The notes under the pieces: generated by a model | Told to the model about the DNA's origin: nothing | Databases searched by the model: none | The model's input: the letters and a program-made list of their open reading frames with translations, nothing else | Made by a program: the position numbers and the translations under genes | Part shown: one piece after another, positions 654 to 8,423 of the stretch | How the letters are laid out: each line of letters opens with the position of its first letter | Position numbering within the stretch: position 1 is the stretch's first letter | Origin: Candidatus Marinacidobacterium sp. | GTDB taxonomy: Bacteria; Acidobacteriota; Vicinamibacteria; Marinacidobacterales; Marinacidobacteraceae | Length of the DNA: 64,000 nt | Assembly (NCBI GenBank): GCA_965220965.1 | Contig: OZ244852.1 | Span: forward strand, 2,304,001 to 2,368,000 | Reading direction: 5' to 3'

Positions 654-911
654 ATGCGTCTGCTCGTCGCCCTGCTGGCGACGGCGCTGCTGGTCACCGC
701 GCCGGTCGTCGGACTGCTCCACGAGCATCCGGGCGGGTCGGACCTGGACTGCACCGCGTGCCAGTCCTGGGTGAGCCAGGCGCCGGAGACCGGCTCCGGA
801 GTCGGGCGCGAGACGCCGCGCGGCGCGGCCGCGGGCGCTGTCGGGGAACCTCTCCCGCTCCCGGCGGGCGCCCCGGCGGGTCCGGGGATCCCCCGGGCGC
901 CTCCCGCCTGA
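654..911 (+). CDS. Small secreted leader peptide with HxH, CxxC and C-terminal RAPP motif (DUF2946/CruR/CutF-like uORF)
   Basis: MRLLVALLATALLVTAPVVGLLHEHPGGSDLDCTACQ...GPGIPRAPPA*; ends 98 bp upstream of a TonB-dependent receptor. Confidence 0.85.
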   Translation: MRLLVALLATALLVTAPVVGLLHEHPGGSDLDCTACQSWVSQAPETGSGVGRETPRGAAAGAVGEPLPLPAGAPAGPGIPRAPPA

Positions 912-1006
912 ACGGCCGGCGAACCCAGGTTCGGACCGGGTCGGCTGTCCCGCCGGCAGCCTCTGGAAGACCGGGTCTCCCCGTTCGCACTTCGTGCGGG
1001 AGGCGC
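897..1006 (+). promoter_or_regulatory. Putative translational attenuator: anti-SD in the RAPP codons (897-907) pairs with the receptor SD region (996-1006)
   Basis: 897-907 GCGCCTCCCGC is the exact reverse complement of 996-1006 GCGGGAGGCGC, which ends 3 nt before ATG 1010. Confidence 0.65.
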
Positions 1007-1009
1007 GCC

Positions 1010-3502
1010 ATGCCAAGGCTCTTTCCCTCTCTCCTCTTCCTGCGGTCCCGCCTTGCGCCAGTGGCCGCCCTTGTCGCGGCGGGGGCGTTCTTCGCAGCGC
1101 CCGCGTCAGCCCACAACACGATCACCGGAACCGTCCTTGTCGAGGAAACCGGTGAGCCAGCCGTCGACGCCGAGGTCATCCTGCTGGAGACCGGCGACGC
1201 CACCCACACGGACGCGGAAGGACGTTTCTCGTTCGGAGAACTCGAGCACGGGATGGCCGTCGCCTCGCTCCATGTCGACTTCGGCTTCCTGACCGGATTC
1301 CACGCCGTCGCGATGGACCCGGACGCGGAGGACATCGAGGTCGTCCTTGACGAGCCCATCCTGGTGAACGAGCACCACCGGGCCCACGAGCAGGTCACGG
1401 TCACCGCCTCGGCGGGCCACGCCTCGCCGCTCGAGTCCTTCGGGCAGGTCCATTCAGTCGAGGGACTCGACCTGGCGAACGAGTCGGCGCGCAACATCGC
1501 GGAGCTCCTGGAAGGGACCCCGGGGGTCGCTATCCGGAGCTTCGGGCCGGGTTCGGCGCGGCCGGTCGTGCGGGGCTTCGACGGAGACCGGGTCCTGCTC
1601 ATGGAGGACGGCGTCCGGACGGGAGACCTGGGCAGCCAGTCCGCCGACCACGGCGTCCCGGTGGACCCGCTCCAGGCGGAGCGCGTCGAAGTGGTTCGCG
1701 GACCCGCGACCCTGCTCTACGGCTCGAACGCCATCGGGGGCGCGGTGAACGTCATCTCGATGGCCTCCCACCTCGCGCACAGCCCGCCGCCGGGCTTCCG
1801 CGGCCAGGCGAACGTCGACTGGTCCAGCGCTGACGAAGGCGTCCGCGGCGGCGTCCGGGCGCAGGCCGGCGGTTCCAACTGGTTCGCCTGGGGAGGCGGC
1901 AACTCGTACCGCTCCGGGGACTACCAGTCCCCGACCGGTCTCGTGGAGAACTCCGGGACGGAGATGAACCAGGGGGAGGTCGGCGTCGGGCTCTTCAATG
2001 ACCTGTTCTACTGGTCGACGAGCGCGCGCATCGACGACTCCCGCTACGGGGTCCCCTTCGCCGGGGAGCTCCACGGGGCGCACGGCGGTGAAGAGGAGGA
2101 AGTCCACGAAGGCGAAGAAGAAGAGCACGAAGGCGAAGAGGAAGGGGAAGAGGAACACGGCGAAGACGAGTTCGGCGTGGACATCGGCATGCAGCGGCGC
2201 CAGTTCCGCTCCGACCTCGGGCTCCGGGGACTGGCGGGGTTCGACTCAGCGGAGCTCACGGTCCGCTACAGCGACTACGCCCACCAGGAAATCGAAGTGC
2301 CCTTCAGTGGCGGGGAAGAAGAAATCGCGACCGAGTTCGACAACCGGTCTCTCGTGTTCCGCGGCGAACTGAAGCGGCAGCGCGGCCGCGTGGACAGCCG
2401 TATCGGCGGCTGGGCCCACCTCCGCGACTACTCGGTCGTGGGGGAGGAGGCCCTCGCGCCCCCGGTCACGCAGAACGCCTTCGCGGCCTTCGCCTACAAC
2501 GAAATCGCCGCCTCCGACCGGCTGAGCCTGCTGCTCGGCGCCCGCGTCGAACAGAACCGGTATGAGGCCGGCGAGAGGCCCGAGCCGGCGGGCCACGGCG
2601 AAGAGGAGCATGGCGCCGAGGAAGAGGAGCACGGCGAAGAGGAAGAGGGTGAGGAAGAGCACGAAGGAGAGGAAGAGGGCGAAGACCACGAAGGGGAAGA
2701 GGAAGAGGAGCACGCCGAGGACGAGTTCGAGGCCCCTGCGGTCCGCGACCGCGACTTCCTCGGAGTCTCGGGCAGCGCCGGGCTGCGTCTGGAGCTGAAC
2801 GGCTCGAACTCGCTCGTCGCAACGACGAGCCTCGCGACCCGCGCCCCGGCGCTCGAAGAGCTCTACAACTTCGGACTCCACGTCGGGAACCTGGCCTTCG
2901 AGATCGGGAATCCGGACCTCGAGACCGAGCGGTCCGTCGGTGTCGATCTGAGCTGGCGCACTTCGGGCTGGATGATCGGCAGCGTGAGCCTGTTCCGCTA
3001 CGACGTCTCGAACTTCATCTTCGGGTCGGCCACCGGCGACCTGGTGGACGACCTGCAGGTTCTGGAGTCGCGTCAGGGAGACGCGGTGTACCAGGGGCTC
3101 GAGGTCGAACTGCACCGTGACTTCGGGCCGTTCGGGCTGGACGCCACCGCCTCATGGGTCGAGGCGGAGCTCGACAACGGACAGCCGCTGCCGCGGATCC
3201 CGCCGCTTTCCGGCGATGTCCGGTTGCGGATCCCCTTCGGCGGCTTCCGCCTCCAGCCGCGGGTTCGCTGGGCGGCGAAGGCCGACCGCGTCTACATCGG
3301 GGAGACGCCGACCGACGGCTACACGCTCTTCGACACCACCCTTTCCTACGTCCGCGTGACCCCGACGATGACGCACAACATCTCGCTGCGCGGCTACAAC
3401 CTGTTCGATACCGAGTACCGCTACCACACGTCGCTCATCAAGGACCTGGCGCCCCAGATGGGCCGGGGCGTCCGGCTGAGCTACTCGCTCCGCTTCTTCT
3501 GA
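1010..3502 (+). CDS. TonB-dependent receptor, ZnuD-like metal uptake, with two His/Glu-rich insertions
   Basis: Signal peptide; plug motifs SFGPGSARPVVRGFDGDRV and ERVEVVRGPATLLYGSNAIGGAVNVI; RAPALEELY; C-terminal aromatic residue (LRFF). Confidence 0.92.
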   Translation: MPRLFPSLLFLRSRLAPVAALVAAGAFFAAPASAHNTITGTVLVEETGEPAVDAEVILLETGDATHTDAEGRFSFGELEHGMAVASLHVDFGFLTGFHAVAMDPDAEDIEVVLDEPILVNEHHRAHEQVTVTASAGHASPLESFGQVHSVEGLDLANESARNIAELLEGTPGVAIRSFGPGSARPVVRGFDGDRVLLMEDGVRTGDLGSQSADHGVPVDPLQAERVEVVRGPATLLYGSNAIGGAVNVISMASHLAHSPPPGFRGQANVDWSSADEGVRGGVRAQAGGSNWFAWGGGNSYRSGDYQSPTGLVENSGTEMNQGEVGVGLFNDLFYWSTSARIDDSRYGVPFAGELHGAHGGEEEEVHEGEEEEHEGEEEGEEEHGEDEFGVDIGMQRRQFRSDLGLRGLAGFDSAELTVRYSDYAHQEIEVPFSGGEEEIATEFDNRSLVFRGELKRQRGRVDSRIGGWAHLRDYSVVGEEALAPPVTQNAFAAFAYNEIAASDRLSLLLGARVEQNRYEAGERPEPAGHGEEEHGAEEEEHGEEEEGEEEHEGEEEGEDHEGEEEEEHAEDEFEAPAVRDRDFLGVSGSAGLRLELNGSNSLVATTSLATRAPALEELYNFGLHVGNLAFEIGNPDLETERSVGVDLSWRTSGWMIGSVSLFRYDVSNFIFGSATGDLVDDLQVLESRQGDAVYQGLEVELHRDFGPFGLDATASWVEAELDNGQPLPRIPPLSGDVRLRIPFGGFRLQPRVRWAAKADRVYIGETPTDGYTLFDTTLSYVRVTPTMTHNISLRGYNLFDTEYRYHTSLIKDLAPQMGRGVRLSYSLRFF
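2072..2173 (+). repeat. Coding low-complexity His/Glu/Gly tandem repeat, loop 1
   Basis: HGAHGGEEEEVHEGEEEEHEGEEEGEEEHGEDEF; degenerate gaagaggagcacg-type units. Confidence 0.85.
2594..2728 (+). repeat. Coding low-complexity His/Glu/Gly tandem repeat, loop 2
   Basis: HGEEEHGAEEEEHGEEEEGEEEHEGEEEGEDHEGEEEEEHAEDEF. Confidence 0.85.
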
Positions 3503-3607: not shown

Positions 3608-5287
3608 ATGAGCCGGCTCACGTCTTCGATTCGCGCTGCGGCGCGTAACCGGCCGCTCAGCGTCGCGGGGCTTGTTGGCGCGCTGCTGGTGACGGCGTGC
3701 GGCGCCCCGTCGCAGCCACCGGGCGGAGGCGCGGTGGACCTGGTCATCCGCGACGCCCGCGTGGTGGACGGCTCGGGGAGCCCCTGGTTCCGGGCGGACC
3801 TGGCGATCTCGGAGGACACCATCGTCTTCGTCGGCGCGGAGGCGCCGCCCGGGGCCATGGTCGTGGACGCGGACGGTCTGGTCGCCGCCCCGGGGTTCAT
3901 CGACATGCACGCCCACTCGGAGTACGGGCTGATCGTGGATCCCCGGGCCCTCAGCAAGGTGGCGCAGGGCGTCACGATCGAGGTGCTCGGCGAGCATCTC
4001 TCGGCGGGTCCGGTGCTCGGACCGGCGGTGGACGACCCGATGATGGTGGCCCCGCCGATCCAGCGGGACTGGACGACCCTCGGCGGCTACTTCGACCGGC
4101 TCGAGGAAGCGGGCGTGGGCCTGAACGTCCTCTCCTATGTGGGCTCCGGCCAGGTCCGCGCCTCGGTGATGGGCTACGAGGAGCGCGAAGCCACCGAGGC
4201 CGAGCTCGAGGCGATGGAGGCGATGGTCGCCCAGGCGATGGAGGAGGGAGCCTTCGCGGTGGCGAGCGGTCTCGCCTACATCCCGAACGCCTTCGCCAGC
4301 ACCGAGGAGCTCACCCGGCTGGCGCGGGTCGCCGCTTCCTACGGCGGCTTCTACGTGAGCCATCTCCGCGGCGGGATCGAGGGCCTCCTCGAGGGGATCG
4401 AAATCTCGCGCGCCTCCGGCGCTCCCCTCGAAATCCACCACCTGAACTCCACGTCGAGCGCGCGGATCGCCGAGTACGCCGAGGTGATCCGCGAGGCCCG
4501 CGCGTCAGGCGTGGACGTCACCGGCAACGTCTACCCCTACATCGCCGGCTGGACTTACCTTCGCTCGCTGCTCCCCCGGTGGGCCCAGGAGGGCGGGGTC
4601 CCCCGGATGCTCGAGCGGCTGACCGACCCGGCGGACCGCGAACGCCTCCTCGAGGAACTCGCCGCCGGCGAGGCCGAGCGGCCCCGCTGGGGACGCACCT
4701 TCGTGAGCTCGTTCCGCGACGAAGTGGACGGGCTCTCGATCACCGACCTCGGCGTCGCGCGCGGAGCTTCGCCCGAAGAGGCGCTCCTCGATCTGCTCAT
4801 CGAGCAGGAAGGCGAGGGGTTCCAGATCTCGTTCGGGAACACCGAGCCGAATCTGCGGCAGGCGCTGTCCCTGCCGTTCACCCACATCGGCTCCGACGGC
4901 AGCGCGCTCGCCGCCGGAATGCGAACGCCGATGGGAAAGCCCCACCCGCGCTCCTTCGGGACCCATCCCCGGGTCCTCGCGCGCTATGTCCGCGAGGAGG
5001 GGCTGCTGTCGCTCGAGGAGGCGATCCGCAAGATGACCTCGGCGCCGGCGAACCGGCTGGGGCTGACCGACCGGGGCCTGCTCCGGCCGGGAATGCGCGC
5101 CGACATCGTCCTCTTCGACCCGGAGCGGGTGCGGGACGAGGCCACCTTCGAGGAACCCGAGCAGTACCCCACCGGGATCGAATGGGTCTTCGTCAACGGA
5201 GTGGCGGTGATCGAAGCGGGCGAACCCACCGGGGCGCTTCCGGGCAGAGTCCTCCGGGGACCCGGCGCCCGGAGGCCCACGCCCTGA
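3608..5287 (+). CDS. N-acyl-D-amino-acid deacylase family amidohydrolase (lipoprotein)
   Basis: APGFIDMHAHSE, IGSDG, PHPRSFGTHPRVL, GLTDRGLLRPGMRADIVLFDP; lipobox-like LVTAC. Confidence 0.9.
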   Translation: MSRLTSSIRAAARNRPLSVAGLVGALLVTACGAPSQPPGGGAVDLVIRDARVVDGSGSPWFRADLAISEDTIVFVGAEAPPGAMVVDADGLVAAPGFIDMHAHSEYGLIVDPRALSKVAQGVTIEVLGEHLSAGPVLGPAVDDPMMVAPPIQRDWTTLGGYFDRLEEAGVGLNVLSYVGSGQVRASVMGYEEREATEAELEAMEAMVAQAMEEGAFAVASGLAYIPNAFASTEELTRLARVAASYGGFYVSHLRGGIEGLLEGIEISRASGAPLEIHHLNSTSSARIAEYAEVIREARASGVDVTGNVYPYIAGWTYLRSLLPRWAQEGGVPRMLERLTDPADRERLLEELAAGEAERPRWGRTFVSSFRDEVDGLSITDLGVARGASPEEALLDLLIEQEGEGFQISFGNTEPNLRQALSLPFTHIGSDGSALAAGMRTPMGKPHPRSFGTHPRVLARYVREEGLLSLEEAIRKMTSAPANRLGLTDRGLLRPGMRADIVLFDPERVRDEATFEEPEQYPTGIEWVFVNGVAVIEAGEPTGALPGRVLRGPGARRPTP

Positions 5288-7832: not shown

Positions 7833-8423
7833 ATGTTGCTGGCCGCCGCAATCGCCGCGCCGTTCCTCGGCGCCGCGCTCTACCGTTGGCTTCACGGACG
7901 CGCCGGAATCGCGCGGGCGGTGGACATCGTCCTCCTGTTCGGCGTGCCGATCATCGTGGGATGGCACGTCCTGGACCACCTGGTCGCGGAGTCGGGGTGG
8001 GCCGTCCTTCCCGCGCTGGCGGCCGGCGCCGGCCTGCCGTGGGGCATCGAGCGGTTGTGGCGCTCGATGGCGAGCCGGGTGGACGACATTTCCCTGCTCG
8101 CCGGACTTTCGGGACTCGCGCTTCATGTCGTCGTGGAAAGCACCGCGCTTTCCTCCGCCGGCGGGCTGGGACTCGCGGTCGTTCTCCACCGGGCGCCAGT
8201 GGGCTTCGTCATCTGGTGGATGATCCGGCCGCGCTACGGAACCGGCAAGGCGGTGGCCGCCCTGACCCTGATCGCGGTCGGCACCCTCACGGGCTACCTG
8301 GCTGCGGACGCCTTCGAGGGACACCTCGGCCTGGAGGGCGGCCTGTTCCAGGCATTCGTCGGTGGCTCGCTGCTCCACGTGCTGCTGCACCAGGTCCGCC
8401 GCGACCACCGCCACGAGGGGTGA
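7833..8423 (+). CDS. Membrane protein with ZIP-like metal-permease motifs
   Basis: Several hydrophobic helices; GLALHVVVES, AVVLHRAPVG, AFVGGSLLHVLLH; His-rich tail. Confidence 0.6.
   Translation: MLLAAAIAAPFLGAALYRWLHGRAGIARAVDIVLLFGVPIIVGWHVLDHLVAESGWAVLPALAAGAGLPWGIERLWRSMASRVDDISLLAGLSGLALHVVVESTALSSAGGLGLAVVLHRAPVGFVIWWMIRPRYGTGKAVAALTLIAVGTLTGYLAADAFEGHLGLEGGLFQAFVGGSLLHVLLHQVRRDHRHEG

Follow-up and report, generated by a model that had tools for sequence, protein, structure and literature searches.

A candidate metal-sensing arrest leader of the CruR/CutF class before a ZnuD-like receptor gene in Candidatus Marinacidobacterium, with stall codons predicted to pair with the receptor's ribosome-binding site

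Introduction

The closest characterized relative of the locus described here is CruR (Bp2923; DUF2946, PF11162) of Bordetella pertussis, the leader of cruR-bfrG-bp2921 (PMC9426467). DUF2946 leaders are marked by a CxxC motif, a C-terminal RAPP, a spacing of 45 residues between the two that is kept within 1-2, a first position before a TonB receptor gene and a long spacer (PMC9426467), and the arrest of CruR takes place in vitro on two Pro codons and requires RAPP (PMC12992588, PMC9426467). For CutF of Rhodobacter capsulatus (cutFOG), stalling opens a stem-loop which masks the Shine-Dalgarno sequence (SD) (PMC9973294; 10.1101/2025.02.05.636593), and a survey from 2025 describes upstream open reading frames (uORFs) with a signal peptide and RAPP or RGPP before TonB receptors across Gram-negative phyla (PMC12992588). 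Here we describe a uORF of this kind in a stretch of 64,000 nucleotides from Candidatus Marinacidobacterium sp. of the Acidobacteriota (GCA_965220965.1, contig OZ244852.1, positions 2,304,001 to 2,368,000; hereafter the window, whose positions are used unless another locus is named), where it precedes the gene of a ZnuD-like TonB-dependent receptor and where the codons of its candidate arrest motif are complementary to the SD of that gene.

SecM, MifM and VemP carry their arrest site close to the 3' end of the leader, where the stalled ribosome blocks a helix that hides the downstream SD; these peptides sense protein export force, not metal, and regulate Sec or YidC components. The SD-masking logic that we propose below is theirs. 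SecM-secA, MifM-yidC2 and VemP-secDF2 are also named as monitoring substrates in PMC9973294, and the ApdA/ApdP arrest peptides share RAPP with the uORF, from which they differ in preceding protein-localization genes and in having no His/Cys sensor (PMC10951233). Metal-site arrest peptides ahead of TonB receptors, and SD masking that is relieved by the stalled ribosome, are already published (CruR 2022, CutF 2023/2025, RAPP survey 2025), and because the principle is known the present locus offers a gain in breadth and wiring detail, not in kind. What is new is a branch in Acidobacteriota and other phyla that is invisible to Pfam, with multi-copy spread in one bacterial family, and a conserved spacer RNA with two competing anti-SD strands in a zinc-type context.

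Results

The uORF encodes 85 amino acids, by translation MRLLVALLATALLVTAPVVGLLHEHPGGSDLDCTACQ...GIPRAPPA, with an in-frame GTG at 642 as an alternative start (the coordinates of all features are collected in Table 1). Its N-terminus reads MR and then a hydrophobic stretch of 20 residues, as do the rows of the alignments A1 and A2 described below, and is followed by a His pair, a CxxC motif, a linker and RAPPA; the latter takes up codons 81-85 (894-908, CGG GCG CCT CCC GCC), with a single residue (A85) between RAPP and the stop codon. An earlier reading of the sequence alone (the sequence-only reading) had described an 85-residue ORF with HEH, CTAC, a Pro/Gly/Ala linker and a terminal RAPPA, all of which are confirmed from the sequence and the ORF list, and a signal peptide, which is supported by reading only. 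By its R-A/G-P-P core near the C-terminus, its small size and its putative localization signal the uORF fits the RAPP arrest-peptide type. If the site assignment is borrowed from CruR (PMC12992588) and ApdA/ApdP (PMC10951233), the ribosome would be expected to stall with its P site on CCT (900-902) and its A site on CCC (903-905).

Like the CruR locus, this one opens with a small ORF that has a putative export signal at its N-terminus, a CxxC and a terminal RAPP, and a long G+C-rich spacer separates it from a TonB receptor gene. The uORF shows the CruR/DUF2946 hallmarks of CxxC, near-C-terminal RAPP, a spacing of 44 between the two (45 in CruR) and the first position before a TonB receptor, and both systems share the expectation that the receptor is on during arrest and off with metal. 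Unlike CruR, the peptide has 85 residues (145 in CruR), a spacer of 98 nt (162 in CruR) and no Pfam match; its receptor is ZnuD-like and has an amidohydrolase gene behind it, where Bordetella has a PepSY gene; and its stall codons pair with the SD in the predicted fold, whereas CruR acts through Rho. With CutF the locus has in common a putatively exported DUF2946-type leader and an mRNA fold that hides the SD of the gene behind it, which in the window is a prediction only. CutF differs by its CxxxC, its EF-P-dependent PPP-type end and the multicopper oxidase downstream, by an anti-SD that lies in an intergenic stem-loop, and by a stalling that is induced by copper, which is the opposite polarity to that proposed here. 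The sequence-only reading had named DUF2946-type leaders with CxxC and RAPP/PP as its precedents, and the CxxC, RAPP and 44-residue spacing of the uORF support this kinship. Its further remark that nothing of the sort was described in this lineage holds in part, in that RAPP/RGPP uORFs before TonB receptors have been surveyed across Gram-negative phyla, whereas the searched text of that survey has no mention of SD masking, secondary structure, zinc or ZnuD (PMC12992588).

Look-alike uORFs were found before 32 of 78 loci of related receptors, a look-alike being an upstream ORF with CxxC and with R-[AG]-P-P within its last 12 residues; in 7 of the 78 loci the upstream flank was short or displaced, which precluded proper scoring. 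By their labels the carriers belong to Acidobacteriota, Gemmatimonadota, Alpha- and Gammaproteobacteria (including SAR86), Opitutales and Bacteroidota, among others. From CxxC to RAPP, 30 of the 32 have 41-46 residues, and the two outliers are without CxxC at the usual place. In an alignment of the window uORF with the 32 look-alikes (A1, 33 sequences), the Arg and both Pro of the motif never vary, conservation reaches at least 90% for H23, H25, C33 and C36, the 44-residue spacer is variable, and R-[AG]-P-P sits 1-7 residues from the stop in every sequence. Ten of the 33 uORFs touch PF11162 at E<=1, the best at 8e-5, and a profile search returned 111 proteins, most of them without a name or domain and 7 carrying PF11162. 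The window uORF does not reach the gathering score of PF11162 (23.7 bits), a homology search with its single sequence recovered only itself, and a six-frame PF11162 search of its own genome found one paralog only, at 18.3 bits. From these sequence comparisons we read the uORF as a putative divergent, largely unannotated branch of the CruR/CutF class.

The receptor downstream has a CarboxypepD_reg-like N-terminus followed by plug and barrel. Its top NCBIfam match is ZnuD (NF038289, 208 bits, best of 31 families), at a score that does not reach the ZnuD equivalog cut-off of 950 bits, and its closest solved relative is ZnuD of Neisseria meningitidis (4rdr, E 3e-27; runner-up 1e-13), from which it differs by the extra N-terminal CarboxypepD_reg-like domain. 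The closest named record, from an Acidobacteriota metagenome-assembled genome (MAG), is 60% identical. The ZnuD-like character proposed by the sequence-only reading is upheld by these matches, on which the receptor appears to be ZnuD-like and not ZnuD. The uORF and the receptor gene are co-oriented, with the 98-nt spacer between them, and a search of the + strand between the two found no terminator-like site.

The end of the uORF (its tail) faces the ribosome-binding site (RBS) of the receptor. Positions 897-907 (GCGCCTCCCGC) are exactly reverse-complementary to 996-1006 (GCGGGAGGCGC), which contains the receptor SD, and the extended tail:RBS duplex has 16 bp (895-911 with 992-1009) at -31.9 to -33.3 kcal/mol and closes a rod-like hairpin across the entire 98-nt spacer (897-1006). 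The SD is predicted to pair with 899-905 at a probability of ~1.0, and the helix is in the minimum-energy fold of both 860-1030 and 654-1060. The exact complementarity had been noticed in the sequence-only reading; it is confirmed here and dominates the predicted fold. When 24-nt windows were slid along uORF and spacer, the RAPP window was the best SD partner (rank 1 of 86). Chance was controlled for with 6000 random pairs of 24- and 23-nt segments at the same spacing, taken from this window of 72% G+C, among which an exact complement of at least 11 nt occurred in 1/6000 and a duplex as stable in 0.22%. A permutation test of the tail against its own SD was significant but confounded by G+C content, and was not relied on.

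In the minimum-energy fold from a second genome of the genus (G002) the RAPP codons and stop region again close on the SD and on the stretch leading up to the start codon (probability of pairing with the tail 1.00), and the helix is kept although the flanking letters differ from those of the window. Of 31 distant loci, 10 have the tail among the best 10% of SD partners, where about 3 would be expected, and 4 have it in first place. At the first Pro codon 16 of 33 loci use CCT, which is locally rare, compared with 6.7 expected from local usage, an excess whose P value is overstated because the loci are kin.

Within the bacterial family, a profile made from 8 uORFs (A2; the window and 7 relatives) matched in 27 of 28 genomes, with 1-6 copies each. 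The genome of the window itself has three leader copies, each before a different TonB receptor class. One of the other two (C1:116572-116823; L079:1420-1704; L131) ends in RAPPA-stop and precedes a siderophore-type receptor (TIGR01783, 240 bits, above cut-off), and the second (C1:444513-444767; L130:648-971) ends in RGPPA-stop and precedes a heme/B12-like receptor; the copy in L079 is the paralog of the PF11162 search. Neither shows an extended tail:SD match.

The spacer between uORF and receptor measures 82-108 nt in 25 family pairs and aligns at 69% mean column identity (A3), and the middle of the peptide is far more variable than this spacer RNA. An anti-SD-like CU-rich motif lies 31-36 nt upstream of the start codon in 23 of the 25 loci; the CCUCC:GGAGG helix between this intergenic motif and the SD is paired in 78.9% of the A3 cells, its letters being invariant. 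The competing AGGAACC:GGTTCCT helix is paired in 90%, with 2 pairs changed on both sides, a degree of pairing that 5/500 shuffles reach. As main partner of the SD the predicted folds of the 25 loci gave the intergenic element in 12, the tail in 7, a mixture in 3, an upstream uORF segment in 2 and a downstream segment in 1. RNAalifold placed a further conserved helix right behind the leader stop (A3 columns 31-36 with 83-88, in the window about 915-920 with 952-957), which crosses the AGGAACC:GGTTCCT helix; this post-stop helix would lie under a ribosome at termination, and not fully under one arrested two codons earlier. An Rfam search of the leader region gave just a sub-threshold chance match at 912-976.

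A number of results weigh against a leader of this class that acts through its tail. The uORF has no match in Pfam or NCBIfam even at E<=1, and the loci compared are kin, not independent, with receptor starts in the relatives that were chosen heuristically. Six of the 11 exact pairs (CCUCCC with GGGAGG) are dictated by Pro-Pro codons opposite a strong SD, which adds to the caution of the sequence-only reading that an 11-nt GC-rich match can arise by chance in this DNA, rare as such matches were among the controls; the fold energy of 860-1030 is unremarkable overall (z = -1.58). The paralog before the siderophore-type receptor retains CCT CCC without the extended SD pairing, the SD of another genome of the genus (G001) pairs elsewhere, and CCT is present in only 6 of 27 family uORFs, the other genera having mostly CCG, CCA or CCC. 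In the family alignment the 16 pairs of the window's helix are formed in 57.9% of the cells, and its key U is found in 4 of 25 sequences. Covariation of the anti-SD/SD pairing, which the sequence-only reading had named as a check, was no better than in shuffles (258/500; 25 family sequences), and of the conservation it envisaged in relatives the uORF part stands, with the pairing recurring in G002 and not in G001. On these alignments the tail:SD helix appears to be specific to the genus in this lineage, with tails often opposite the RBS across the family.

The folds with a blocked tail bear on the same question. A ribosome stalled on RAPP had been supposed to free the SD, and this was not borne out: with the tail held single-stranded (885-915 or 890-920) the SD was still paired, with P(unpaired) of 0.001-0.14, its partners now being the intergenic 972-981 or in part the start of the receptor ORF (1022-1031). 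The short hairpin CGCAC-TTC-GTGCG at 986-998, which had also been pointed out, is present in the sequence and is predicted only when the tail is blocked. With the tail blocked, opening the RBS took 16-19 kcal/mol instead of 21-23; the gain of 3.7-6.6 kcal/mol shrank to 1.2 kcal/mol when a wider context was folded. Across the family the mean gain was 0.8 kcal/mol; it exceeded 2 kcal/mol in 7 of 25 loci, compared with 1/25 and 0/25 for control blocks placed 45 and 75 nt upstream. At 14 other SD-bearing gene starts in the window, opening costs 17.9 ± 5.4 kcal/mol, and the 22-25 kcal/mol required at the receptor are not exceptional, as 4 of these 14 need at least 22.5 kcal/mol. By these modeled energies the free state would be among the more masked third and the tail-blocked state about average, because of which we expect a modest rather than a clean switch at equilibrium. 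Kinetics could sharpen it, for example if the helix 933-942:969-978 formed before the SD emerged.

Discussion

Our preferred reading, which we hold tentatively and with slightly more doubt than conviction, is that the uORF would be a divergent metal-sensing arrest leader of the CruR/CutF class that controls the ZnuD-like receptor through arrest-dependent unmasking of the RBS by its tail. The ribosome translating the leader would arrest once Pro83 (CCU) occupied the P site and Pro84 the A site, and would cover 895-911, thereby removing the strongest mask of the SD and of the bases up to the start codon. The RBS would then have only the intergenic anti-SD 972-981 to hold it, in a local hairpin of lesser strength, and receptor translation would rise, the translated receptor message being shielded from Rho as well. 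Metal bound at the His/Cys site of the nascent chain would release the arrest, upon which the ribosome would terminate at 909-911, the tail:RBS helix would re-form and receptor synthesis would drop; Rho polarity on the untranslated receptor message may contribute. Receptor off with metal is the logic to be expected because the receptor is of an uptake type. The wiring through the SD is plausible, and the folds above support it only in part. In a more far-reaching version, which we regard as doubtful, the two competing anti-SD strands (stall and stop codons on one side, the conserved intergenic element on the other) would make up a three-state switch, in contrast to the simple on/off of CruR or CutF, within a sensor branch for zinc-type or other divalent metals instead of copper; a His2/Cys2 site (HxH plus CxxC) on the nascent chain would respond to metal availability and set the translation of genes for zinc uptake, among them ZnuD-like receptors of many phyla and the ZnuA-family ABC importer of Shewanella, and the acidobacterial paralogs would be wired to different classes of TonB receptors.

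One alternative, unlikely in our judgment and the first to be weighed, is transcriptional control as in CruR, where the arrested ribosome would protect the transcript from Rho and release by metal would lead to termination before or inside the receptor gene, with the tail:SD match being secondary or incidental. Rho control has been demonstrated for CruR, which has the same kind of uORF, a long structured G+C-rich spacer and a TonB receptor (PMC9426467), and the lack of conservation of the tail:SD helix in the bacterial family is in keeping with it. The sole C-rich, G-poor tract, at 976-1080 (C/G up to 1.89), could serve Rho when the receptor RBS is idle. However, a rut-like C-rich tract was sought inside the uORF and the spacer and not found; the 3' part of the uORF and the spacer have no excess of C over G (C/G 0.97-1.15) and are tightly structured by prediction, and for these two reasons they would make poor Rho loading sites. 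The spacer of 82-108 nt at 25 loci, with an anti-SD facing the SD in 23 of them, also points to control at the level of the RBS.

A second alternative, which we consider improbable, leaves the control with the intergenic RNA: GGTTCCTCC would switch between two partners, the SD (off) and the upstream AGGAACC (on), and the ribosome at the end of the uORF would set the choice by a relay, the RAPP-codon:SD match of this genus being a by-product of Pro-Pro codons and G+C-rich flanks. The family data speak for such a toggle through the anti-SD motif of 23 of 25 loci, the 12 of 25 in which the intergenic element is the main SD partner, the 78.9% pairing of CCUCC:GGAGG and the 90% pairing of the competing helix, with its two double-sided changes (5/500 shuffles), as well as the post-stop helix of RNAalifold and its crossing of the 'on' helix. 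Yet the tail outcompetes the intergenic element entirely in the window and in G002 (P ~1.0), an exact match of at least 11 nt at this spacing turned up in only 1/6000 controls, and the relay gives no consistent energy gain (mean 0.8 kcal/mol). The covariation evidence for the intergenic helices is moreover thin, because conserved helices hardly vary.

It is still less probable that the polarity is that of CutF, with metal on the exported nascent chain causing or prolonging the arrest and the receptor on with metal. Such a scheme has been put forward for CutF, where a signal peptide, a Cys motif and a Pro-rich end likewise go together with a stem-loop that masks the SD (PMC9973294, 10.1101/2025.02.05.636593), but an uptake-type receptor induced by its own metal makes little sense, and motif and spacing of the uORF fit CruR (CxxC, RAPP, 44-45) and not CutF (CxxxC, PPP). 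That the small protein mainly serves the receptor as a chaperone, binding metal in the periplasm or membrane, with a RAPP end of no regulatory role, is most improbable in spite of a Shewanella homolog (P0019) that NCBI names 'ABC-type zinc uptake system zinc chaperone' and of the conserved His pair and CxxC, as the R-[AG]-P-P near the stop is invariant (33/33) and the preceding 44 residues are free to vary, which argues for an arrest module rather than a folded domain, and as the CruR and CutF proteins are undetectable or quickly degraded (PMC9426467, PMC9973294).

With respect to the metal sensed by the proposed arrest leader, for which the sequence-only reading had suggested Zn, Ni or Co, the genomic context would speak for zinc or another divalent metal of this sort no less than for copper. 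The receptor resembles ZnuD and has His/Glu stretches, a ZitB-like CDF gene is nearby, and the conserved His pair and CxxC together offer four potential ligands. Against a single specificity speak the three copies of the window's genome, which precede three receptor classes, and the characterized relatives, all of which sense copper. A search within a limited set of papers found no description of a zinc-responsive arrest leader. Zinc is also favored by homologous uORFs at 17 Shewanella loci (L132-L148), of which the operon was inspected in L132 only; there, in Shewanella sairae (L132:3992-7401), a RAPP leader (CGC GCC CCT CCA) heads not a TonB receptor but an ABC-importer operon with a 408-residue protein, a ZnuA-family binding protein (PF01297, 128 bits) and an AztB/ZnuB-like permease. 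The 408-residue protein had no match in Pfam, NCBIfam or PDB, by which an identity as an AztD-like zinc chaperone was not confirmed.

If the preferred reading is true, metal control by nascent-chain arrest would extend from the copper genes of Proteobacteria to zinc-type uptake receptors of poorly studied soil and marine phyla, where most such leaders are unannotated and missed by Pfam. It would also provide a compact natural case in which the same nucleotides encode an arrest motif and mask the RBS of the next gene, two functions that would be separable by synonymous codon changes.

Feature coordinates and neighboring genes

Table 1. Positions of the leader, spacer and receptor features in the window, with the basis of each assignment.
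Feature	Position	Strand	Basis or remark
Leader gene (uORF)	654..911	+	ATG 654, TGA 909-911; 85 codons plus stop; ORF list and alignments
N-terminal Arg and hydrophobic stretch, codons 1-22	654..719	+	Putative signal peptide or membrane anchor, judged by eye from the translation
His pair H23-E-H25	720..728	+	H23 and H25 at least 90% conserved in 33 sequences; H25 invariant in A2
C33-T-A-C36, CxxC candidate metal site	750..761	+	At least 90% conserved in A1; invariant in A2
Spacer from CxxC to RAPP, 44 codons, variable, Pro/Gly/Ala-rich	762..893	+	Spacing 41-46 in 30/32 related uORFs
R81-A-P-P84 candidate arrest motif	894..905	+	Codons CGG GCG CCT CCC; R, P, P invariant in A1
Predicted anti-RBS strand (stall codons, last codon, stop codon)	895..911	+	Pairs with 992-1009
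Structured leader, uORF to receptor, 98 nt	912..1009	+	Alignment A3, 25 sequences, 69% mean column identity
Predicted internal helix 933-942 with 969-978, capped by hairpin 943-949 with 955-961	933..978	+	Family counterpart AGGAACC:GGTTCCT
Intergenic back-up anti-SD CGGGTCTCCC	972..981	+	Captures the SD once the uORF tail is blocked (predicted folds)
Small hairpin CGCAC-TTC-GTGCG	986..998	+	Forms only in the tail-blocked fold, as 987-990 with 994-997
Receptor RBS	996..1012	+	SD core GGGAGG 998-1003, ATG 1010-1012
TonB-dependent receptor gene, ZnuD-like	1010..3502	+	830 aa; domain, NCBIfam and solved-structure comparisons
His/Glu-rich low-complexity stretch 1 of receptor (aa 355-387)	2072..2170	+	
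His/Glu-rich low-complexity stretch 2 of receptor (aa 527-572)	2588..2725	+	

Upstream of the leader, a scan of 1-1100 found no sigma-70-like promoter, and on reading 1-653 no A+T-rich palindrome like a Zur or Fur operator was seen. A gene for a MazE/AbrB-type antitoxin-like protein of 96 residues (PF04014, E 1e-11; 317-607, +) ends 35-47 nt upstream of the leader on the same strand. Among the nearby genes are a ZitB-like CDF gene and an OEP-family gene, in agreement with two of the three neighbors (CDF, ZIP and CzcC-like) named in the sequence-only reading. The third, at 7833-8423 (+), had been taken for a ZIP transporter; it is a 196-residue hydrophobic ORF beside the ZitB-like CDF gene, matched no Pfam or NCBIfam family, and is not retained as such.

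The opening codons of the receptor (1019-1045) form a conserved pyrimidine-rich tract, found likewise in L081, L082, L084 and L088, which pairs with the SD in some constrained folds and could be a third anti-SD or a Rho loading site. Behind the receptor, on the same strand, lies the amidohydrolase-family gene (PF07969, E 1e-25; 3608-5287, +), whose product has an N-terminal signal-like segment.

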